From: Nitrosopumilaceae archaeon
GTDB taxonomy: Archaea; Thermoproteota; Nitrososphaeria; Nitrososphaerales; Nitrosopumilaceae
DNA length: 64,000 bases
Direction: 5' to 3'
Assembly: GCA_965209085.1 (NCBI GenBank)
Contig: OZ242376.1
Location: 736,001-800,000 of the forward strand
Shown in pieces: positions 34,963-62,951 of this stretch. Every line of letters starts with the position of its first letter. The stretch's first letter is position 1. The position numbers and the translations under genes are program-made. The notes beneath the pieces were generated by a model, which worked only from the letters and a program-made list of their open reading frames with translations, was not told the DNA's origin and did not search any database.

Positions 34963-35060
34963 TTTGACCGGGTTCTGTGTAGAATACGGGAGCTTGACTA
35001 GAGTGTGTAATTTCGGGAGTTTTTTGGACGATTTGCGATCAGAATGCGACATACTCACGA
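34963..35060 (+). repeat. Arm repeat, copy 1 (island left border)
   Basis: TTTGACCG-GGTTCTGTGTA...GTGTGTAATTTCGGGAGTT...TTTGCGATCAGAAT; reverse-complement homologue of the arm ending at 46075. Confidence 0.85.
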
Positions 35061-35084
35061 ATATCCGAATAAATTCTGTTCAAA

Positions 35085-35284
35085 TCACTATTGGGTAAAG
35101 GATGTAGGATTTATGTTGTGGTTGCAGCACAGTTCTGCAAGAGTGATGTGCGTGTTTATTGACTCCATGATGATACGCACCTTTTCGTCTGGAGCATGAT
35201 GTGATCTTTTCATTGATGAATACCTCCAAGACTGGATAAAATTTGTTCCACTTTGGGCGTTCTCATTTTATGGGGCCCACTCCA
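35085..35284 (-). mobile_element. IS3-family left-end fragment (variant like 58907)
   Basis: Reverse complement matches 58907-59100. Confidence 0.85.
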
Positions 35285-35403: not shown

Positions 35404-38400
35404 CTAGGTATCATCGTATATGATTATAGTTCTAATTTTGCTCTCAGGCATGTTGCCGGCCGCATCGGGGGGCGCAATGTATTCTATAAAATACATTCCA
35501 GGCTGTAAAGTGCTCAGAGCAGTAGAGTTTTCACGCGTCGTACCCTGATACGTTGGATCATTATCGTGTACAGAGGCGCCAGCATCCGTATACTCGGATC
35601 CTGCAGGAATTCTCGCTGTAAGATTTCCGTCCAGTTGGATTGTAGGCGCATCCATGTCCACAAAGACGTTTGGTGAGTCAAGATCTGATTCGATTGCAAA
35701 TACGGTTCTGCCAGCAGAGTCAACGGCGGTAATGGCAAAGGTTGCATGACCGGCATCGCCTGCCAGTACGGATGCGCTTGCATATACTATATTCTCTGTA
35801 AAGACAACATTTGCATCCCTTCCCATAATGGTTGCAGATGCATCCGCAATATCTTCACCCAAAACCCATCTTATGGTGAGCAGATCGCCGGCATTTGCGT
35901 ATTCATAGTTTGGATTGTTGGATTTTATAATCAGACCTTGCTCGTGTTTTGGGTCTTTGAAATTGGCAGCAGCTACTCTGATTGAATCAAGCATTGATTC
36001 GTATGATTTGTCACCGTGCGCCGGAGTGCCACCCTGCGACGAGATTGGGTTTGCAGACGGACCAAGACTGACTGTCTGAATTCCCTCACCGTTGCTGCCT
36101 ATAACAGCATACAGGTCTGAATTGATTTGTACTGCCGAGACGCTTGTAGCAAGACCTGTGGATACAAAGCCGCCATAGCCATCACGGATTCCTGCAGCAG
36201 GTGTAGGATTGGAAGGATCTGTAATGTTTAATATCTGCACGCCGTCATCCTCGTGACTTGCCACAAGTGCATACACAAGTTGCCCTGATTTTACAATATC
36301 AACACCCATTGGAGCCTGCAGTGATTCAAAGATTGTTGGATGACGCTCAAAGCTGTCTCTGGGCGAAGATAAAACGCTCGGTGCGGTGGGGTTTGTAATT
36401 TCTATTATGTATACCTTGTTGTAATATGTGGAAGATATGACCGAAAAGGTTCTGCCATCATTCTGCACTATGTCGTTTGTGTTGAAATGGTATGGAAAGT
36501 ATACATAGTAAAATGGATTGGCGTTTATAATTAGTGTTACAAATGGGTTTGCAGGATCTGAAATGTTTATGAATAAATTCGAACCCCAGCCGGTTGAACC
36601 CAAAACGATAGCAAACGTTTCAGTACCGATTCGTACCGTATCTACATGGTAGGGGTCACCGCCAGTGAACGCAAATGTGGCTGTCGGATTTGTCGGATCG
36701 GTAATGTTTATGATTTGAAGTCCGTCATTCTCGCTTGCAATTATTGCAAACGTGTCATCGCCTATCTCAAAGGCGTCCACATCAAAGGCTCCATCAAGCG
36801 CTGTAAACGGTGTTGGGTTTTCATCCGTACTGTCAGTTATGCCCGCCACTGCGATGGGGTTTGTCGGATCTGTAATGTTTATGATTTGCAATCCGTCATC
36901 ATCATAGCTTGCAATTAGGGCATACGTGTTTGTGCCTATCCTTGTCGTATCCACGTTGCGAGGACCCTGCAGTTCCGTAAAGCTGTCCGTCCCATCGACC
37001 ATGGAGCTGATGGCAGCAGGGTTTGCAGGATCGGTAATGTCAGTTATTCTGGCATTACTTGAATGCCAATCCACGGTTATGGCATATGTTCCAAAACCGA
37101 TCTTTACAGTCTCTACATTATATACAGGATCAAATGCAAACTGACCGCCAATGCGTAGATTACCCAAAGCTACAGGATTGTCCATTGCTGCCGGATCTGA
37201 ATTTGTCGTGCCAGTTATGTTTACGGTGCGGGTTGTACCAACTAGTCTGTTACCACTATTGTCTCCGCCTCTGTTTCCGCTTGGATCTGGGGTTATATGA
37301 TATACGATCGTGTATGTTCCTACTTTGCTCGTGTCAATAAGGTTGGCATTGGATGTAACGGTTCCCACGTATGTGGGATCGTTATCGCGTGCTTCCACAC
37401 CTTGTTCATAATACTGGGTGCCGCGAATTATCACAATATTCAGATCTCCTGTTAGGTGTAATGTTGGAGGGGTTGTATCCACGAATACGTTTTCGGAGAT
37501 TAGATTTGATTCAGTTACGTTTAGCATGTTGCCTAGTCCATCTTGTACTATAATCTCAAAGGTAGTATTGCCGTTTGTATCATTCCACCATACGGGAATG
37601 CTTGCAATAATGGATGTTACATTGGATGATATGCTGGCATTTTTGTCCAGTATTGTGGCAGTTACAAGATTAATCTCCATGCCTGCGTGCAATACGACGG
37701 TTATAATATCATCTGCCCTTGCGCGGTGTACGTTTGGATTGCTACTGTATATGTCCAGACTGTACGAGATTGATTCGGTAATGGTGATTGGTTCCTCCCC
37801 TGTCACGTTCACGATGCGGGTTATGATCGGTGCCTGGTTTCCTGCAAGATCTGCGTCTGCGGTGTATTCTATGATGTGTATGTCGGGTACGGAGGTGCTC
37901 ACATCCGTGGCATTTGAGGTAATATTGCCTTTGTATGATGGATCATTGTCGGATAATAATGCTCCCGGGTCTACATATTCTTGTCCTATCTCTATATGAA
38001 CAATTGGCATGCCAATTAGGGTCAGATTGGGCGCGATTGTATCAACGTAGACGTTTGTATCTGTCAGATCGTGTTCTGATATTTTGAGTCTAGAGAGTAT
38101 GTCTATTAGTGAAATCGCAAATGTGAGATTACCGTTTGTATGATTTTCATGTATGGTAAAAGTTGCAGTCAATGTGTTGTTGTTTATGATCGGCAGGATG
38201 GTTTTATTCAAGACGGTCATTTCTGCACCGTATATGAGTCTGTTTGTTTGCAGTTCAAGTGTAACGTCATCTCCAGTTTTGGCATATGCGTGATTTTGCC
38301 CGTTGGATGTGGCACTAAACAAAGTTATCGCATACGGGACTGGATCAAATACTGTTACGGTTCGCGTTTTATTTTCAGGTATATTTCCTGCCTGATCTGC

Positions 38401-41400
38401 ATCAGCTGAACATTGTATGGTTTGATTTCCCAGTTTGGATGTGTCAATCAGTGTGTGATTTGAGGTTACAATGCTGGCATAGGATGGATTGTTTGCATCA
38501 GATACTGAACATCCCAGATCAAAGTAAAAGCTGTTATGCACTTGAGTTACGGGGTTGTCTCCTATTATGTCGATGATTGGTTTTACTGTGTCCACTATGA
38601 TATTGGCGGATGTTAAGTTGTCATGAGTTGCAAGCAATATTTTATTTCCGGGTGCATTTGCCATGATTGTAAATGATACAGGACCGTTTGTATCCTCAGT
38701 CATTACAGTCTGTACCGCACTTATTGAACCATTTTGTATTAGAATTGTGGCGTTGCGATCCAGTATCATGGCAGTAATGTTTGATATGGGTCCTGTTACA
38801 TTCATTGTTGCGGTAATATTGTCTCCAGTTTTTGCGTAGAGGTTATTGGTATTGGAATTTGATATTGTAGGAATTATGAATTTAGTTTCGTAGTTTATTT
38901 TAAGATCACCATATATATGAATGTCATTCAAATATACATGTTCGTTATGACTGTCGCTAGCGACTGTAAAGCGCAGTGTAAGACTGTCACTGTAGATATA
39001 TTTGCCAATATCTATATTATCACTAGACCATTCTATACCGAAACGTTCCTCGTTATTGTGGCGCTCCGTATAATTTGCCACCTGCTGCCAGCTGCCATTT
39101 CCGTCATTTGCTTCAATTTTTAATCCCTCATCGTTATAGTCATCAACATTTGTCATACGATATGAGAAATTAAGATGAACTTTTTCATAAGGGGTCATAT
39201 TCAAACCGTTTTTCATAACAAGTATACAATCTTGATCACAGTCAACCGCATGAAAGACAGTATCATCAACATTGTTTTGGTTTGTGGTGTTTGTGATTAG
39301 CCAATCTTCTCCTGAGCGATCCCACTCTTGGAACGTATCTGCATGATCTTGGAAAATTGTCACATTTTTGGATTTTATTTTTATTTCTATTGTTTCTGTT
39401 CCTGTAATGTTTGCATCGTTTATGCGTATAATTTCATCACTCTTACTACTAATGGCCGTTACGCGCACGTTAAAATTCTCACTGGATGAATATTCATCCA
39501 AATTCATGTTCATTTCAGTCCATGTGAATGAATCTGTGTTTACATCATCAAAAAATGCAATCTCGTGCCACGAGTTAGATACGTTGGATACTTCTATTCT
39601 GAGACCTTCATTTTGGTATGCATCTATTCTGCTTGATAGATAATACCAGAGATTCAAGTTGGCATTATCATACTCTGTTAGATTCATACTTTGTATCGTA
39701 ACTAGTTCGCACTCGTTATCGCAATCACTTGCCTCCAGCACCTCGTCCATTACGCCGTACTGGTTTATAACTGACTCATCTGTCCATGGGGAATTTGAGT
39801 TCCATAATATTTCAGCAAGTTTAGTTATCTCTTTTATGATATAATGACCATCATCATCATCATGATACAAATAGATGAAATCTCGGGCTATATTCCCTTG
39901 TGCATCTTCTGCCATTGCAGTGACCGTATTGGTAGAACGGGATAATGATATTGTGGTAGACCAGATGTGCAAATTATTTGTCAGATTGGAATTGAGCACA
40001 TCATTAACAAAAATCGTTATAGAAGTGACATTAATGTTATCTGATGATGTTCCATTAATGACAATGTTTTTACTTTGGAATGTGGATCTATGTGACGGAT
40101 GCGTGATTTCAATTTGTGGATTGGTTTTGTCCACATAATATCGGATGTTATTATGATGAAAGTTTAATCCTAGTGATGGATATCCCAAATTGTTCCAATT
40201 ATTTTCAAAGTCAAAGATTGTTGATGAATTATCATATTTAAATGCGCGCCATAACTGGGATTCAGTAGAAAGTGTGTCGTTGATTTCATTGGCATCATCA
40301 TATATATCCCATAAAGAGGCTGCCACCCATGATTCATATTTGCTGCCAGTAATGTTAAATCGATCAGAAAAAGGATATTCTGTAGTAGTACCAGCGTTGA
40401 AAGTTGCATACTCAAAATCAATTGGATCAACATAAAACCCAGGATACAATATGGGCGAATCCCTCATCCATATTGTAAAAAACCAAGCCCAACCTTCAAC
40501 CCATCCGCATTTATCGGTGTAATGGCTATCAATATTATGACCACGACATATGGGTATTTCTGAATTTAAATTTATATAAATTTGATCTTGAATATGATGG
40601 GCGTATTCATGTGGGAGTACAGCAGTAATGTTATAATTCAGCACATATGGAATATAGATTGTCGCATTTAGATAGGATGCCGGTCTAATATCATTTAATG
40701 TTACGTTAACGGTAGGTGCATCATACGACACCTTTGAGTATAATAAATCATGCATGGATGTCACATCAGCATACATTTGATGTGTAATTGGATAATTCAT
40801 CGGATATTGGTTTACGGTACCTACGTAAATTATTCTATCTTGTATGCCATAACGTATATTTGCAAGTGATTCATAAAATTCCACAGGTTTGTTATTGTTT
40901 ATAATTTTAACTGCATCATTTACTAATGATACACCAATAAGTAAATCCATGTATCCCCCACCAGGATTTGGATCCTCATTTATTCCTATTAATTTAAAGA
41001 AGCCATTAGAATATGATCGAGTACAAACATCACGGTCGCCACTTTTTAATATAGTCATATCACTATTATTGTGTATATTAACATCGAATGCACATATGAG
41101 ATAATCATCTGCTGGAACATGATTTAGATCCTCATTTATGGTATTATAATACCCATATACATAAAATTGAAGCGGAGCTGCTGCTGTCACCTTGGGTAAA
41201 AAAAAATCATTAAATATTGTATTTTGTGTTGAAAATTCCGGATATGCGTTAAAAAAATCATCTACAAAATCTTCTGAAAGATTTTCATCCATCAGCCAAT
41301 TTTTAGTAATTTGAATACCTTCATTTTTTTCCACTGATCTTAAAAATTCGGCAAGGCCTTCCCAACCTGGTTGAGGCACATATCCGGGTTCTTTAACTAC

Positions 41401-42402
41401 ATTTGGCGGCGGAGTAAATTGTTGGACAGGTTGAGGTTTTGGTATGTAATCAGGCAGACCACTTGGCAATGTTTCAAATTCCCGATCGCCACTAAACCAT
41501 TTTTGTGTTGTATGATTAAAGGACAATCCGAAATATTGTGTGGTATCGCGATAACTAGATACTCTAAATTCCGGATCTGTGTTGGATATAGCTTTTACTC
41601 CATGTTCAGTAGGGGTTAGTTGTAAATCCAATCCCACATCATGCACCCCTACACTAAAGATACTATCTGTATGCACCAGTGGTCTTGTTAATTGAAACTT
41701 TATGGAACCGTGGACAGTTTCATTAGTAAAAAATATGGGCTCTCCATGATAAACTACTTTCAGATATCTTATATGAGGACTTGCTGCGATTGATTTAGGT
41801 TTGAATGAATCAGTCAGCATGATAAATTCAGAGTGTAATATAATCTTAGGAACAACCATCACATCGTTTCCATGTATATCGAGATATCGAATATTACCAT
41901 TTTCATCAATACGATGAGGTCTACCATCAGGTACAGCATATTGAGGAGTGCCATCCTCATCAAGCCAATCCACGGTATAATTTATTATAGATGTTTCATT
42001 AATTTTGATATCTCGTGAAACTTCTAATGAAATAAATGGACTCACAAGATTTATAAAAGATTGATGTGATCCGCTAGTGATGGTAATTTTTCCATCATTG
42101 GCATTTGTTTCTCTAGATGTATTTACGGCAGGATATTTTATTTCAGTATGTTGTGTATTGGTCAATACCGACCATCCGAGTTTTTGAGCGGTTTTTTCTG
42201 ATACGCATGCAATTTTATCCATTCCTCGATCAACGAGTAAAAGATCGTCTCGGCATACTATATTATGCGGCATCGTTCCACTATCAAGCTGTTTTTTTGG
42301 ACTTTGAACATAATCTGAGGGTTGCGCGTATGTGGTAGAGATTGTGACAGTTGATAATATTATAATTAATGTGAGAATGAATAAAATTTGATAGTTTGGC
42401 AT
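35404..42402 (-). CDS. Giant secreted multidomain protein (2332 aa): HExxH metallopeptidase-like, Ig-like/DUF5011-like and LVIVD-like repeats
   Basis: Signal peptide, HEYAH...EGWA, repeated YAKTGD and VDT..P units, repeated GLQIINITDP.NP. Confidence 0.85.
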   Translation of the reverse strand: MPNYQILFILTLIIILSTVTISTTYAQPSDYVQSPKKQLDSGTMPHNIVCRDDLLLVDRGMDKIACVSEKTAQKLGWSVLTNTQHTEIKYPAVNTSRETNANDGKITITSGSHQSFINLVSPFISLEVSRDIKINETSIINYTVDWLDEDGTPQYAVPDGRPHRIDENGNIRYLDIHGNDVMVVPKIILHSEFIMLTDSFKPKSIAASPHIRYLKVVYHGEPIFFTNETVHGSIKFQLTRPLVHTDSIFSVGVHDVGLDLQLTPTEHGVKAISNTDPEFRVSSYRDTTQYFGLSFNHTTQKWFSGDREFETLPSGLPDYIPKPQPVQQFTPPPNVVKEPGYVPQPGWEGLAEFLRSVEKNEGIQITKNWLMDENLSEDFVDDFFNAYPEFSTQNTIFNDFFLPKVTAAAPLQFYVYGYYNTINEDLNHVPADDYLICAFDVNIHNNSDMTILKSGDRDVCTRSYSNGFFKLIGINEDPNPGGGYMDLLIGVSLVNDAVKIINNNKPVEFYESLANIRYGIQDRIIYVGTVNQYPMNYPITHQMYADVTSMHDLLYSKVSYDAPTVNVTLNDIRPASYLNATIYIPYVLNYNITAVLPHEYAHHIQDQIYINLNSEIPICRGHNIDSHYTDKCGWVEGWAWFFTIWMRDSPILYPGFYVDPIDFEYATFNAGTTTEYPFSDRFNITGSKYESWVAASLWDIYDDANEINDTLSTESQLWRAFKYDNSSTIFDFENNWNNLGYPSLGLNFHHNNIRYYVDKTNPQIEITHPSHRSTFQSKNIVINGTSSDNINVTSITIFVNDVLNSNLTNNLHIWSTTISLSRSTNTVTAMAEDAQGNIARDFIYLYHDDDDGHYIIKEITKLAEILWNSNSPWTDESVINQYGVMDEVLEASDCDNECELVTIQSMNLTEYDNANLNLWYYLSSRIDAYQNEGLRIEVSNVSNSWHEIAFFDDVNTDSFTWTEMNMNLDEYSSSENFNVRVTAISSKSDEIIRINDANITGTETIEIKIKSKNVTIFQDHADTFQEWDRSGEDWLITNTTNQNNVDDTVFHAVDCDQDCILVMKNGLNMTPYEKVHLNFSYRMTNVDDYNDEGLKIEANDGNGSWQQVANYTERHNNEERFGIEWSSDNIDIGKYIYSDSLTLRFTVASDSHNEHVYLNDIHIYGDLKINYETKFIIPTISNSNTNNLYAKTGDNITATMNVTGPISNITAMILDRNATILIQNGSISAVQTVMTEDTNGPVSFTIMANAPGNKILLATHDNLTSANIIVDTVKPIIDIIGDNPVTQVHNSFYFDLGCSVSDANNPSYASIVTSNHTLIDTSKLGNQTIQCSADADQAGNIPENKTRTVTVFDPVPYAITLFSATSNGQNHAYAKTGDDVTLELQTNRLIYGAEMTVLNKTILPIINNNTLTATFTIHENHTNGNLTFAISLIDILSRLKISEHDLTDTNVYVDTIAPNLTLIGMPIVHIEIGQEYVDPGALLSDNDPSYKGNITSNATDVSTSVPDIHIIEYTADADLAGNQAPIITRIVNVTGEEPITITESISYSLDIYSSNPNVHRARADDIITVVLHAGMEINLVTATILDKNASISSNVTSIIASIPVWWNDTNGNTTFEIIVQDGLGNMLNVTESNLISENVFVDTTPPTLHLTGDLNIVIIRGTQYYEQGVEARDNDPTYVGTVTSNANLIDTSKVGTYTIVYHITPDPSGNRGGDNSGNRLVGTTRTVNITGTTNSDPAAMDNPVALGNLRIGGQFAFDPVYNVETVKIGFGTYAITVDWHSSNARITDITDPANPAAISSMVDGTDSFTELQGPRNVDTTRIGTNTYALIASYDDDGLQIINITDPTNPIAVAGITDSTDENPTPFTALDGAFDVDAFEIGDDTFAIIASENDGLQIINITDPTNPTATFAFTGGDPYHVDTVRIGTETFAIVLGSTGWGSNLFINISDPANPFVTLIINANPFYYVYFPYHFNTNDIVQNDGRTFSVISSTYYNKVYIIEITNPTAPSVLSSPRDSFERHPTIFESLQAPMGVDIVKSGQLVYALVASHEDDGVQILNITDPSNPTPAAGIRDGYGGFVSTGLATSVSAVQINSDLYAVIGSNGEGIQTVSLGPSANPISSQGGTPAHGDKSYESMLDSIRVAAANFKDPKHEQGLIIKSNNPNYEYANAGDLLTIRWVLGEDIADASATIMGRDANVVFTENIVYASASVLAGDAGHATFAITAVDSAGRTVFAIESDLDSPNVFVDMDAPTIQLDGNLTARIPAGSEYTDAGASVHDNDPTYQGTTRENSTALSTLQPGMYFIEYIAPPDAAGNMPESKIRTIIIYDDT

Positions 42403-44403: not shown

Positions 44404-44629
44404 TATGACTCGGTGCCCGTTATTATTTAATAGATGAATTCATACAGGCACAGATTTCATATATAAAACAAAGTTTAGTTTAAATGTATGAGGCAACATT
44501 GCCAAATTGATTCTGGTACGATCAATCCCATCATGTTACGATAGTTAGGATTATTACACGAGTTCACTCTTGCTTAGCCTCAACTTATAATGGTCATAAC
44601 GTGCATTTAAACTTTTCTAATAGAATTAT

Positions 44630-44708
44630 GTATGAGGTCAGCACCTCGTGCTATTTTATGCCTACATCTTCATTTATTGCATAAATTCTAGGCATGACGT
44701 GACCTCAC
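44630..44708 (+). mobile_element. ~80-bp MITE, copy 1
   Basis: GTATGAGGTCA...GTGACCTCAC; near-identical to 59690-59767 and rc 51459-51539. Confidence 0.85.
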
Positions 44709-44757: not shown

Positions 44758-45708
44758 TTGAAAATCCTAATAATTGGTACCTCCAGCGTTATTGGTTCTG
44801 CATTAACTGAGAGATTCCTAAAGATGGGAATTGATGTAACATGCTTGGATATTTGCCGAATAGATGAAGCTTGGAGACTAAACAACGTATGAGATCAGAT
44901 AAAATACATCTGGAAGGCCTCAAACGACCTATTGTTAGACGATATTAGAGGAATTGATGTAATAGTAGACAGCGGGGTAGGGGTGGCAGATCGACCACTT
45001 GGAACATCTAGCCCAACACATACGTTTACTGCAAACCTCGCCCCATCATTTCGGATTTTGGAAACGGTCAGCAAGATGGATGCAAAAAAACCCACAATAA
45101 TCTATCCAAGCTCCTTTAATACGCTGTATGGACATCCTGCAGGATCCGTATATGTTTCAAAAATGCTCCCAAACCCCTCTTCTGTATATGGCTGGACCAA
45201 GGCTGCCGCAGAACTACTTTACAGTACATACCACAAAGCTCATGGAGTACCCTGCGTGATAACACGGGTAGGTAGTGGATATGGGGCTAGAATGAGAAGT
45301 GATGAATTTCCGGCCCAGTTGATATTGAATGTGTTAAAAGGCAGGGATATAACCGTCAGATCTCCAAATGCCAAGAGATTGTGGACATTTGGAGATGACA
45401 TTATTGAATTTTATGCAAAATTAATAGAAAATCTAGACCAGTACATAGGTCAAACACTGCACTGTGCAGGAAATGCTGGAAACAATATTGTCAAGAATAC
45501 GACTCTAGCAAAAATGGTTACAAAAATTGGTAAAAGTGACATCAATATCAAATCTGGCGAATATGAACCGGGCGAGCTGGTCGATGGCAAACCCATATCA
45601 TTTGACATTGAGAGTCAATCCCCAATGTGGAAGCCAAAATTTACCCTGGAAGAAGGATTGACAATGACATACAAGTGGTTTGAGCAGAATTTATTTAGAT
45701 ATTCATAG
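44758..45708 (+). pseudogene. NAD-dependent epimerase/dehydratase with in-frame TGA at 44890
   Basis: MKILIIGTSSVIG (degenerate GxxGxxG), YGWTK catalytic motif, same frame on both sides of the stop. Confidence 0.8.
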
Positions 45709-45829
45709 TATACCATACCATACTCTGATCGAAAATCTTCCAAAATCACATACTTCGATCTAATATATGAAAAAATCTCTCAAAATTGATACTTTCGTAG
45801 GCATATTGTTAAACAGATCTCATAACCAA

Positions 45830-46250
45830 ATGGTGAATTCATACCTTTCTGATCGCAGATTCTGTAAAAACCCTGAAATTTCACATCTAATGATTTTCGT
45901 AAGAGTTTGACTCGTCTAAAACTAGATCGCTATTTCAAAAAAACCCTGATCGCAAATATCCACGTGATGCTTGTACCAACCCCCGAATTTACACACTATT
46001 TTGTATATAAAGCAAAAACCCCCGAAATTACACACTCAGGCATAACCCCCGTGGATTACACAGAACCCGGTCAAAGGTTCTGTGAAGTTGGCGGGGGTTG
46101 TGGCTAGGTGTGAAGTTTCGGGGGTTGTTTCTTTATATACAAAATGGTGTGAAATTTCGGGGGTTAATGTAGTATGTTGAGGTATTATTATGGATATTTG
46201 CGATCAGAATTTTTCTAGAATAGCGATCTAATTTTAGATGGGCAGAATTC
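45830..46250. repeat. Long imperfect palindrome of two arms around an 8-bp spacer (46068-46075)
   Basis: CACAGAACC-CGGTCAAA-GGTTCTGTG core; mirror-spaced AACCCCCGAAATTACACAC and CTGATCGCAAAT motifs. Confidence 0.9.
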
Positions 46251-46252
46251 AA

Positions 46253-46876
46253 TGGTGCGGACCCCTGTAGAGGGAGAATGATTTTTGTATTAAAAATGAT
46301 AGGATCAGAGGGCTCATTTTATCATTGCCCTCCGTGCGGTGCCAAATTCTGATGGCGTCGCATATCCTATTGCAGTGTACCCGGTTCTGATTGTAATCCT
46401 CAAAGGCGTATGATATTGTAGCCTCTGCGTCCTGGAACGTCTCAAAGTCGCGCGGCCAGACATACTCTTTCTTGAGACTCTTATGGAAGGATTCCACATA
46501 ACCGTTTTGCTCTGGCGTGTGATAGTGGATGAATTCCTGCCTCACACCGTATGCTTTTACAGCCTTGCCAAATTGCGCTAAAATATACTGGGAACCGTTA
46601 TCTGTTCTTAGGGTAAGATTTGAGCAATCCGGTTTCTTGGATGCCAAGGCTTAAGTTAATGCTGCAATGGCACCGTCCGTGACCGCTCTTGGCTCAAACG
46701 CATATCCTACCCATTCGCGGGTAAATGCAAAGGATGTTGAATAGGTAACACCATCTGTCCTGACCGCACCAAATGTACATCATGTCAGCCTGCCAAAGTT
46801 GATCAGGTCCTGTGGGTTTTGGGCGCTTCCTTGAGCGAATGATCTCTTTTTTGGGCTTTGCAGGCGTACTCCAGCC
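46253..46876 (-). mobile_element. IS3-family 3' fragment
   Basis: Matches 51639-52265; LRTDNGSQY, PEQNG.VESFH. Confidence 0.9.
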
Positions 46877-46912
46877 CCCCGAGTGTGGATGTTTTTTGTG
46901 TATGCGTTGATA

Positions 46913-48130
46913 TAGTATAAGAATTTATAATTTACATTTTATCACAAACACACCGAATACAATCTCCATAGTAACAATTACCCCACATTATTGTTTCTAA
47001 AAAATTAGATAATCGTGCAGTTTGACAAGTTTCATCTGATTAGACAATATGACCCGGTCAATTTTCTTTTTCAGGTGTCTGATCGATTCAAAATGCCCAT
47101 TTGATATGCATTTTCGTAAAACACGCCACTGGATTTCTATTGGGTTCAGCTCTGGCGTATACGGTGGAAGATAAATTAAACTGATTCGTCCTTTTCTAGA
47201 TTTGATGTATTCAAATACGTCACGGTGACGATGATAAGATGCATTATCATGCACTATTGTCACACGGCCAAACTCTTTTTCCAGGATTTTTATAAAATCC
47301 AAATGACTGTCTTTGTTTGCTTTATCGTAAAACTCGAATATGAAAGAATCCTTGCTTAAAGCTCCAAACATGGTTATTCTGTGTCTGGTCGGATCTAATG
47401 GAACTTGGGGTTTGCTGCCTATGAGGTACCATGCGTTACGGATATTGGTTGTTGGGTAAAGATGAATCTCATCCATGGATACAGTTACTGCTCCGTGTGC
47501 CTCTCTTTGTGCCAATATGTGCCTAGCTTTTTTTTAAAGCGTTCCTGTTCACTCTTTGATGCAGCTTTGGGATGGTACTGACGGGGTTTTTGAATTGTAA
47601 ATCCAAGACGTTTGAGTAAATTTTGTACAGAACGTGGGACATATTGTACCTTGAATTTTTTCCAAATGTGATCCGTTACCATTACAGTAGACCATGCGGA
47701 CTGACTATATCCGCATTTTTCAGGTCCGGCAATCAGATCCTTTGTTAGTTTTTCAAGCTGTTTTTCTGAAAGATGGCATTCCCTGCCAAGACGTTTTATG
47801 TTGTATCTTGAGGCTAGTCCATCCTCCATTACCCGTATGAGCCATTTGCATACTGTTGTCTCTTTTACGCCAAGCTCCTCGCCAATCTTCTCCATTGTTT
47901 TGTCCTGTTTTCTTTTAATCCATGAGAGAAGACGCTGTTTTGCAACTGGAATCTTTTCTTTTGCATAACAATTTCTAAGATATGTGATGCTCATGTTTGG
48001 CATGAACTCGATGCCTGTCGGAATTCTGTTCTGTCGCGTCATATTTGCTCTTAAATCTGGTGCGATCTAAACGTAGCGATTAAATTTTTGTTACAGAGTG
48101 GTTAAACGTAATTAATAACTTCTTATACTA
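46913..48130 (-). mobile_element. IS630-family element (ORFs 47485-48042 and 46997-47515, -1 frameshift at T TTA AAA AAA)
   Basis: TIR TAGTATAAGAA, TA flanks, MDE, HDNASYH, LPPYTPELNPIE. Confidence 0.93.
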
Positions 48131-48134
48131 TATA

Positions 48135-49568
48135 GGTCATGTCACAACTATTGAAAATTCTATTGGAAATTCCATCAAAAATGACAGTAAATCTTCCAAA
48201 AACACACACCTGTCATCGATATCCGGACCCATTTGTTATCAAACCGTAATTTTACACAAAAATCTTCCAAAATTCACACATCTGCATACAGCGTCCGCTA
48301 GGCTTATTGCAGTTTGTGTCAGTGTACGGCACATATTAACAAATTGTACACTAGGATTTTCATGCCAATTTCTTGCTTTATGTTTTTCATATATCTTGAT
48401 CGTACATGTTCTCCAAACCTTTCTTTGAATATTGCAAAAACAATTTCAGAGTGCCATCTTTTTCCATACTCTATATCTTTTTTCCATTTTTTCAGATTTT
48501 CCTTTCGTTTTTGTATTGAAACATCATTCATTGTACGCTTGCTTGCATCTCCTCCAAGCTGATCTTGCACCGCCGTATTGCGTTCATGACTGCCGCCTGA
48601 CAGTGCTGAATTGATACGCACCTTTAACAGACCAGACATGCAAAGTTTGTCACACACGTTGTAATTTTCTTTTGTACCGTATGCCCCATCGCCAAGAATT
48701 TTCATCATTGTGTTTTTGTATTTGGCAGTCTCTTCAGTTGAATCCATCTCAGATATCATGTGCGCAAGCTGCCATCTGATCTTTTTGCGTGCATGTCTGA
48801 TCATCTGTGGGAACTGTGATGCATCCCCCTTGTTGCTTTTTGTTATCTTAAAATCGAGTATTTCAAGCGTTTCTACGTTTATGACAAGATGCAGTTTTAG
48901 AAACGGACTTGATATGCCCCATTTTTCTTTTATCCATGATCCAAGTTTTGATAGTTTCAGTCCGCTTGAATCAATAGAGATGAGCATCGTAGGCTGTCCG
49001 TTCATGCGCCTTGTCGGATCAAGTGTTTTTAAAGACAGACCACACATGCGGGCCATCTTTTCCAATCCGTTATCAGAAATGTCCAATCTCTGTATGCGTT
49101 TGTATATCGTACTGCTAGATGGAGATGCATCATCCATTACTTTTCTAACCATCCCTTCAATAGTGCAGCTTGAGTAACTTGTGCACGCTTGGATTACCGA
49201 TAATACCCAAAAAAGCTTGTCCGGATACATGTAACGTCTGCCGTTCTTACATTTGTTCATGCATTTGAGTTCTTTTTTGTATTCTTTTGGGACTGCAAAC
49301 TGGCTCAGATGGCCAAACAGCATGGATGCAGCACGGCTTTTCAGGTTTTTCTCGGCAATTCTTTTTTATCCGCCTCTTTGGTTTCTGCATTCGATATTTT
49401 TATTACACAGTGCTTTCTACTCATAGTGGATCATCTCCGTGGGTGTTTCTCATAATTCGTCCACTTTGTGGGATGATCTAAATCTATGGAATCAAAATTG
49501 TCGCCAACTTGGATATTTTAATATCGTTTTAGTCAAAATGTCAGAATTAGGCAGGTTGTGATATGACC
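48135..49568 (-). mobile_element. IS5-family element, copy 2 (transposase 48319-49323)
   Basis: Near-identical to 42970-44403, same length, TA flanks. Confidence 0.93.
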
Positions 49569-62494: not shown

Positions 62495-62750
62495 TAATTC
62501 ATAAAATTTATGTTTGATGGCTCTGAAATCCGTGGAGGTTGTGACTAGGTATGAAGTTTCGGGGGTTTTTCTATATGTACTATAAAGTGTGTAAAATTTG
62601 GGGTTGGTGCAACATGCCGAAGTATTATTTGGGATATATACGATCAAAATTTTTCTAAAATGACGATATAATTTTAGATGTGTCAAATTCTTATAACACA
62701 GATCAAATATGATGTTTCAGGGTTTTTTGGAGGATCCACGATCATAATGG
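62495..62750 (+). repeat. Arm repeat, copy 4 (diverged)
   Basis: Colinear with 46076-46250 and with rc 45830-46067. Confidence 0.85.
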
Positions 62751-62951
62751 TGTGGGTAAGCAGGTTAGTCTTGGTAACCACTGCTATGTAATAGAAGATT
62801 ACCCTCACCCATAGTGGGATATTTTTGTTCTGATAGGAATGATCATTTTTGTACAAAATTCCTTTTTCCACATCCAATACATTAAAATCAATTCTCCGAT
62901 CTAACCAACTGCCATTTTTGGATTTTTTCTAGTGATTTACTCCAGCATTTA

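Follow-up and report, generated by a model that had tools for sequence, protein, structure and literature searches.

A palindromic end-to-end junction in an ammonia-oxidising archaeon and its probable origin from two IS6-like transposon relics

The window analysed here, a 64,000-nt stretch of DNA corresponding to positions 736001-800000 of a single 1.69-Mb contig (41% GC, 98% complete), contains an imperfect palindrome at 45915-46238. This palindrome most likely comprises the termini of two decayed, non-autonomous transposons of an archaeal IS6-like family, which lie 8 bp apart, the duplication length of that family. Our reading draws on direct observation of the anatomy of the palindrome, of the terminus at which its arms stop, of the link to the family through relatives, and of the frequency of such junctions in other genomes. 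In this genome the palindrome amounts to debris of mobile elements, and nothing points to a function for the cell. It is not a new kind of element, and what is unusual about it is a multi-site end together with an apparent family-wide habit of end-to-end insertion. Neither trait appears in the excerpts of PMC7986276, PMC6807381 and PMC6563490 consulted here, and the supplements of these papers may list such elements.

Anatomy of the palindrome

The core of the palindrome consists of CACAGAACC (46059-46067), the 8-bp spacer CGGTCAAA (46068-46075), and GGTTCTGTG (46076-46084). Around this core the two arms are ~80% alike and hold three copies of motif A each, with mirror-image spacing of 39 + 28 nt on the left and 28 + 39 nt on the right. 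A repeat finder resolves an inner inverted repeat (45978-46067 and 46076-46165), with 90-nt arms that are 82% complementary across an 8-nt gap, and an outer inverted repeat (45915-45962 and 46191-46238), which is 88% complementary and contains motif B and a GCGATCTA..TTTTAGA box. With up to three mismatches, motif A matches seven times in the window versus 0.03 expected, and seven matches were reached in none of 100 shuffles. The left arm carries an additional A+B pair at 45868-45886 and 45847-45860. Each of these elements, namely the palindrome, its core, the motif spacing and the extra pair, is present where an earlier note on this DNA had placed it. The centre of the palindrome is GC-rich and not AT-rich.

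The left arm (45722-46067, minus strand) reads as the end of a transposon relic, here B1, with its terminus at 46067 and its body extending leftward, and it contains four motif-A sites, three motif-B copies and the box. Its terminal 9-mer (46059-46067, minus strand), which is GGTTCTGTG when read inward, is an IS6-type tip (GG...cTGT; PMC7986276, in excerpt). The terminal motif-A site, A1 (46040-46062, minus strand), overlaps this terminus and is in register with the terminal site of relatives described below, followed on the same strand by A2 (46017-46035, one mismatch), A3 (45978-45996, two mismatches), and a degenerate distal A4 (45868-45886, three mismatches). Measured from the tip, A2 lies at ~32 nt, A3 at ~71 nt, and A4 at ~180 nt. 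The right arm (46076-46252, plus strand) appears to be the end of a second, more diverged relic, whose terminus is at 46076 and whose body extends rightward until it is truncated at 46252. On this side, A1 (46079-46098) was located by the repeat finder, and A2 (46108-46126) and A3 (46147-46165) match with one and zero mismatches, all on the plus strand. The spacer at 46068-46075 is a sequence of target length that is common to both termini, and for at least 177 nt the arms are built alike.

Between the motif-A sites and beyond them, the arms hold further mirrored blocks. Motif B (CTGATCGCAAAT, 45944-45957, minus strand) has more copies at 45847-45860 and 45724-45736 and a mirror copy at 46196-46209, and the box TAGCGATCTAATTTTAGA (46221-46238, plus strand) is mirrored at 45915-45932. 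Between left A2 and A3 is an AT-rich block, TATATAAA (46004-46011, plus strand), with its mirror TTTATATA at 46132-46139 and a mean pairwise identity of 0.71 among arms. The block TATATAAA resembles the archaeal TATA-box consensus, and is a possible promoter.

The palindrome is not an assembly fold-back, because its arms are only ~80% alike and because its centre is bridged by 323-nt contigs from two public runs of two studies, which cover 45996-46318 with zero differences (one of the two runs may be the source sample). Both points answer a concern that the earlier note had raised. An RNA hairpin was also considered and rejected, as the arms also exist as solitary halves, and an Rfam search of window 45400-46700 at permissive thresholds returned only a chance snoRNA match (E = 0.95).

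The surrounding region is dense in IS3-, IS5-, IS630- and IS66-like elements. As had been proposed, the right arm is interrupted at 46253 by an IS3-like insertion, a multicopy element represented here by a fragment (46253-46877, minus strand). The IS3 family is the best match for the partial protein it encodes, at 82.4 bits, which is under the 160-bit cut-off owing to the incompleteness of the protein. An IS630-like insertion (46909-48130, minus strand) is nested beside it. The stretch at 48125-48325, which is arm-like in appearance, proved to be the end of an IS5-like element. The IS load is very high for a 1.69-Mb ammonia oxidiser, with ~20 IS3-like copies or fragments and at least eight IS5-like ones in addition to IS630- and IS66-like elements. 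A single cdc6/orc1 gene and an archaeal amoA gene were identified in the genome, and the host is an ammonia-oxidising archaeon; genomes of its relatives measure 0.8-4.3 Mb. Upstream of cdc6/orc1, at genome ~85.5-85.8 kb, is an AT-rich stretch flanked by AGAGTGGAAA...GGGT repeats, which is likely the chromosomal origin with its recognition boxes.

Arm copies and their termini across the genome

The genome contains eight arms of this kind. Two make up the window palindrome, two make up a second palindrome at genome 805701-805724, and four are solitary (genome 661077, 770971, 798520 and 825407, of which the second and third are window 34971 and 62520). The solitary arms at 661077, 770971 and 825407 break off exactly at GGTTCTGTG and are followed by unrelated DNA, which identifies GGTTCTGTG as the terminus of mobile DNA. 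The tip is exact in six of the eight arms and degenerate in the other two, and GGTTCTGTGTA occurs six times in the genome versus 0.8 expected. The solitary arm at window 34963-35090 (plus strand) has its terminus at 34971, preceded by TTTGACCG, and runs through an internal deletion into an IS3-like end fragment. The degenerate solitary arm at 62520-62754 (plus strand) has a terminus that reads GGCTCTG... A separate "left-type" class of arm, suggested by the copies at genome 805717 and 770971, was discarded, as these are arms of the same kind with an internal deletion between motif-B copies, followed by the IS3-like end fragment. Two neighbouring genes were noted in passing. A 2332-aa open frame (window 35404-42402, minus strand) starts ~300 nt past the solitary arm at 34971, and a serpin gene (Pfam Serpin, E = 1.7e-98) at genome 806403-807824 lies ~0.7 kb from the second palindrome with IS debris between them.

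Conservation among the eight arms is concentrated in the motifs. The mean pairwise identity is 0.74-0.83 for the terminus and A2/A3, and 0.42-0.51 for the stretches between them. This conservation of motifs and tip amid drifting sequence supports a candidate protein-binding role for the motifs, in line with the protein-binding arrays that the earlier note had envisaged. The arms also differ in their relationships. Over the first 180 nt, the left arm of the window palindrome is 95% identical to the arm at 661077 and 93% identical to the arm at 805708, whereas it shares 80% identity with its own partner over the same length, indicating that the partners in the palindrome are different copies.

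The spacer and its surroundings recur in the genome. In opposite orientation relative to the near-identical B1 arms, the 8-mer CGGTCAAA separates the termini of the second palindrome (at genome 805709-16), and it also precedes the solitary arm at window 34971. Between the two palindromes, 25 of the central 26 bp are identical. The only 8/8 flank match among motif-A arms involves a pair 34.7 kb apart. The pair at 824176 and 825407 is flanked by ATGCGCTA and ATGTGCCA, which are identical at six of eight positions and provide a weak case for a decayed target duplication.

Inside the left element is a pseudogene of an NAD-dependent epimerase (44760-45708, plus strand; Pfam Epimerase, E = 2.7e-19), the 3′ end of which faces the terminus. 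Window 44788-46068 is duplicated, together with the arm, at genome 662349-661076 (1281 nt, 95.6%), and the epimerase is present in these two copies only, with a 57-nt remnant of its 3′ end also found after the arms at genome 805717 and 770971. The pseudogene reads as cargo of the left element. Just upstream of it, at 44628-44707, is an ~80-nt MITE-like repeat with more than 25 copies genome-wide at 80-99% identity.

IS6-like relatives and abutted ends in other genomes

The terminus connects the window arms to transposase-bearing elements in other archaea. A search for the exact core with any spacer in one genome per prokaryotic species returned 15 stretches, of which 11 are bacterial and were set aside as chance (~9 expected; several look like terminator hairpins). 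The other four are archaeal loci, and all continue as GGTTCTGTGTAA, as does the window. In one Nitrosopumilaceae MAG, GGTTCTGTGTAA occurs 34 times versus once for the reversed control and bounds elements in inward-facing pairs. By comparison of coordinates, 10 of these 34 tips lie within 3 kb of a transposase match, and a clear tip is found within 3 kb of only one of the five full-length transposase loci of this MAG. Two of the archaeal loci, L023 and L026, turn out to be one sequence, carried on a contig with mirror symmetry about position ~9725. The two transposase copies there differ in stop codons, and the symmetry reflects either a genuine inverted duplication of large size or a fold-back of long reads.

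Bounded elements with the same terminus measure ~2.5-7.2 kb in other archaea, and the transposase is 370-394 aa long in all six that were checked. A Euryarchaeota MAG contains two of them, a 7.2-kb element (L064) with a perfect 8-bp duplication, CACCCCAA, and a protein of 394 aa, and a 4.5-kb element (L065) with a perfect 8-bp duplication, CCTATTGG, and a protein of 392 aa. Both proteins combine SWIM and DDE_Tnp_IS240 domains. Four Nitrosopumilaceae loci each hold a 2.5-3.0-kb element between two junctions that encodes a transposase of 370-385 aa, and the flanking 8-mers are identical in three of them (L095, L096 and L097) and reverse complements in the fourth (L098). In this family the transposase joins a SWIM zinc finger and a zinc ribbon to a DDE domain of the IS6 type. 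The NCBIfam model NF033587, "IS6 family transposase", was the best match for all nine transposases tested, with four above its cut-off of 125 bits and the other five at 110-123 bits. The L064 and L065 proteins are above the cut-off and cover the model over its full length. In three of the Nitrosopumilaceae loci (L095:1342-2412, L097:3954-4943 and L098:1297-2238), the transposase gene has a neighbouring open frame of 313-356 aa, for which NCBIfam gave no significant match and which could be a conserved accessory gene. Relatives also carry defence-type cargo, including an Eco57I/MmeI-like restriction-modification fusion and a PIN-domain protein (L064, 4125-6950 and 6947-7495) and an Mrr-type nuclease (L063, 880-2469).

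The genome under study itself encodes three diverged lineages of SWIM/IS6-type transposase, which are 32-35% identical to those of L064 and L065. One lineage sits in an element with the tip GGTTCTGTAAAC, and a sister copy at genome 570889-575328 shares this tip and is bordered on both sides by the 8-mer TGTGATAA, a perfect duplication. This sister subfamily has a terminal repeat of 27 nt only. An intact transposase of the family is encoded by a 371-aa frame at genome 1313912-1315027. Two more intact SWIM/IS6-type homologues lie at genome 1308.4-1310.0 kb and 660-1880, one of which is 543 aa long with two SWIM-like N-terminal modules. Around these two loci we found no recognisable ends, and the homologues may be domesticated, or their ends may have diverged past recognition.

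The window arms align in register with the ends of these relatives at the tip, at the terminal site, and at a second copy ~31 nt inward. Past the first 9 nt, identity to transposase-bearing relatives reaches 16-19 of 36 positions versus ~9 for shuffles. The window arms hold three to four sites over ~200 nt, versus two sites in ~50 nt in relatives, and they look like ends of the family with one or two extra site copies that belong to relics or to non-autonomous elements. This status reflects the fact that no transposase accompanies motif-A arms in the searched data. Motif-A arms and a transposase do not occur together in the host genome, and there is no IS6-like match in or near the window, consistent with the earlier note, which had seen no cognate enzyme there. 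By BLAST against 40 related genomes, the arms had no match outside their own genome. Pattern scans for the A2-A3 pair gave one match in metagenome contigs, in a high-GC bacterial coding region and read as chance, and none in viral contigs. The link between motif-A arms and this enzyme would therefore be one of family resemblance.

The arms and their relatives can be compared with the IS6 family feature by feature. No IS6-type DDE transposase lies between the window ends, and one is present in relatives with the same tip. The 8-bp duplication is found in the sister element at 570889-575328 and in L064, L065, L095, L096 and L097. The GG tip and cTGTt motif are recognisable in GGTTCTGTG, with G and not T at position 9. 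Terminal repeats of 15-20 bp and a length of ~700-900 bp are not features of these elements, as the similarity of the arms extends for at least 177 nt and relatives measure 2.5-7.2 kb. The earlier note had set IS6 aside on the grounds that its members are without long subterminal arrays. Relatives with the same terminus, 8-bp duplications and two-site ends nevertheless carry transposases that best match IS6. Such transposases are found in other archaea and, in the host genome, in the sister subfamily.

Abutted ends are not confined to this genome. Allowing no more than one mismatch, the pattern ACAGAACC-N8-GGTTCTGT was present in 40 of the 401 genomes in a sample of the class (own genome included), versus 5 of 401 for a reversed control pattern (count from the table). 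Leaving out two unpublished genomes, the counts are 38 of 399 and 4 of 399, and within the host's own family the junction pattern is present in 28 of 223 genomes. When spacers of 0-20 were scanned with up to two mismatches in the host genome only, exact matches were obtained only at N8, at the two junctions, and the other lengths gave zero to two mismatched chance matches each. In three cases the spacer equals the duplication of the adjacent element, and in L048 and L064 it represents one copy of that duplication. The abutted arms in other genomes usually come from different subfamilies. Random insertion would yield ~10^-4 to 10^-3 junctions per genome, by simple arithmetic for a few dozen ends in millions of bases. 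At that rate ends would almost never come to lie flush by chance, from which we infer that insertion is directed at the 8 bp next to an end already in place. The pattern suggests that IS6-like transposons favour landing flush against a resident copy.

Origin of the junction and comparison with known systems

We propose that the transposase would bind the terminal site, A1, which overlaps the tip, and the repeated subterminal motif-A sites. By analogy with IS26, it would then cleave at the tip and join it to a target cut with an 8-bp stagger. The chemistry is argued by analogy because the authors of PMC6807381, in the excerpt consulted, report having found no experimental data for archaeal IS6-like elements. 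In the probable order of events, one element was already resident and the other inserted precisely into the 8 bp next to its end, giving the arrangement of end, 8 bp and end. Later insertions of IS3-, IS630- and IS5-like elements, along with rearrangements, would have disrupted both elements, and parts would have been copied elsewhere in the genome. The earlier note had described the palindrome as the right-end/left-end junction of two elements integrated in tandem at one 8-bp target. Two element ends and a single 8-bp target remain in our account, and the tandem orientation becomes one possibility, because both arms have the same end architecture and the elements could also be arranged head to head.

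A single simple insertion does not account for the finding that two junctions carry one 8-mer in opposite orientations. One scenario is that the B1 transposon, with long similar ends and the epimerase, entered the spacer of an older junction and duplicated it, after which an inversion with one breakpoint inside B1 would have separated the halves, which fits the present order of parts. More simply, the 8-bp loop that lies between the inverted arms could have flipped.

Other origins of the palindrome can be weighed against this one. The same family could have generated it in place, through IS26-style intramolecular replicative transposition of an element into its own 8-bp flank, with the arms diverging later. 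An inverted duplication would explain why both arms share one end architecture over at least 177 nt, and the 8-mer is reverse-complemented both at the two junctions of the genome and around the L098 element, a signature of IS26 intramolecular events. However, the two arms share only 80% identity, against 93-95% between the left arm and arms elsewhere, abutted arms in other genomes are from visibly different subfamilies, and a perfect long palindrome would be unstable, so that we consider duplication in place unlikely. An origin from a different family, ISL3, is very improbable. ISL3 elements have GGCTCTTTG-type tips and 8-bp duplications, to which the tips and duplication length here are similar, as the earlier note had pointed out, but DDE_Tnp_ISL3 has no match in the genome and elements with the same tip carry IS6-type transposases.

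Readings that invoke something other than a DDE transposon fare no better. The earlier note saw in the palindrome a candidate junction of an undescribed site-specific element and likened its layout to that of a tyrosine-recombinase att site, which would make it the attachment site or tandem junction of an integrative element, recognised by a tyrosine or serine recombinase, with inverted half-sites around an 8-bp overlap and motif A as arm sites. Its layout does resemble loxP/FRT-type cores with arm sites, and 25 of the 26 central bp are the same in both palindromes. We regard such a site as very improbable nonetheless, given that Phage_integrase (PF00589) has no match in the genome (the control was positive in 14 of 14 reference genomes) and that bounded relatives have variable 8-bp duplications and DDE transposases. 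Moreover, the solitary arms end at the tip beside unrelated, differing 8-mers, which leaves no constant overlap. A replication origin of an integrated extrachromosomal element, in which motif A, with its GAAATTTC dyad and G run, would be an ORB-like initiator box in an inverted array, is about as improbable. It would draw on the resemblance of motif A to archaeal origin recognition boxes and on the AT-rich block in the arms, but the repeats beside the single cdc6/orc1 gene (84 kb) are unlike motif A, the palindrome centre is not AT-rich, and the arms end at a transposon tip, exist as solitary halves, and have a site layout that matches the transposon ends of relatives. The chance that the palindrome represents the terminal repeats of casposons in a tandem array, another suggestion of the earlier note, is slimmer still. 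Casposons and tandem casposon integrations are reported from Thaumarchaeota (PMC6563490, in excerpt), yet the genome has no Cas1 match, in a search whose control was positive in seven reference genomes. The 8-bp duplication length and the DDE transposases of relatives also argue against casposons.

With two abutted IS6-like relics as the preferred explanation, the tangle of duplications around 661-825 kb can be understood. Our analysis suggests that ammonia-oxidising and other archaea harbour an IS6-like lineage that has been little described, with long zinc-finger transposases, two- or multi-site ends, passenger genes (restriction-modification, PIN, epimerase), and apparent flush insertion against resident ends. 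We put forward more tentatively, as somewhat short of an even chance, that SWIM-type IS6-like transposases use a resident end, even that of another subfamily, as a landing beacon with a normal 8-bp duplication, producing end-to-end arrays. If this were true, the three- to four-site arms found here could be especially strong landing pads, the targeting mode would be distinct from the duplication-free targeted route of IS26, and the junctions in roughly one in ten sampled genomes of ammonia-oxidising archaea would be accounted for. These observations bear on target choice by IS6/IS26-type elements, an open question according to the excerpt of PMC7986276, and on how nested transposon arrays build up in small archaeal genomes.

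Several known systems share parts of this organisation. In Mu, Tn7 and IS21, further copies of the terminal binding site follow subterminally at fixed intervals, as in the window arms, and the target duplication is ~5 bp. The window arms differ in belonging with another transposase family, in the 8-bp duplication, and in that no accessory ATPase was seen here. In the circle junctions and (IS)2 dimers of the copy-out-paste-in families IS3, IS21, IS30, IS256 and ISL3, the two ends of one element are joined and highly reactive. Here, by contrast, the arms are diverged (80%), and the junction has persisted and was duplicated. We rejected a circle junction or tandem dimer, given the 80% identity between the arms over 180 nt and the location of the left arm's nearest relatives elsewhere.

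The closest parallels in target choice are systems of targeted insertion. The targeted route of IS26 leaves the IS unduplicated and is not known to create a fresh 8-bp target repeat, whereas the incoming element here has a normal 8-bp duplication that becomes the spacer, and the partners here, unlike those in targeted-insertion systems, are often from different subfamilies. What is shared with the conservative route of IS26, with IS30 and with IS3-family members is that the incoming element lands at the boundary of the resident end: integration of IS26 is targeted beside resident copies, and members of IS3 and IS30 insert into terminal repeats (PMC7986276, in excerpt).

The family as a whole is most similar to IS6/IS26, which is characterised by 8-bp repeats, GG tips and a cTGTt motif (PMC7986276, in excerpt). 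Relatives of the window arms have the GG tips with a CTGT core, the 8-bp duplications, and a DDE transposase that best matches the full-length IS6 model. They differ in that the transposase is 370-394 aa long with SWIM and zinc-ribbon N-terminal domains, whereas the same excerpt mentions zinc-finger IS6 forms from Clostridia only and describes archaeal members as the smaller ones. They also span 2.5-7 kb with extra genes and have ends with two repeated sites (three to four in the window), versus the 15-20-bp terminal repeats and ~800-bp length of classical IS6 (PMC7986276, in excerpt). Consistently, it has been noted that the archaeal "IS6" elements may merit a family of their own (PMC6807381, in excerpt). 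Finally, the ends of the relatives are often abutted 8 bp apart, whereas ends abutted a few bases apart are described as typical of other families and not of IS26 (PMC7986276, in excerpt).
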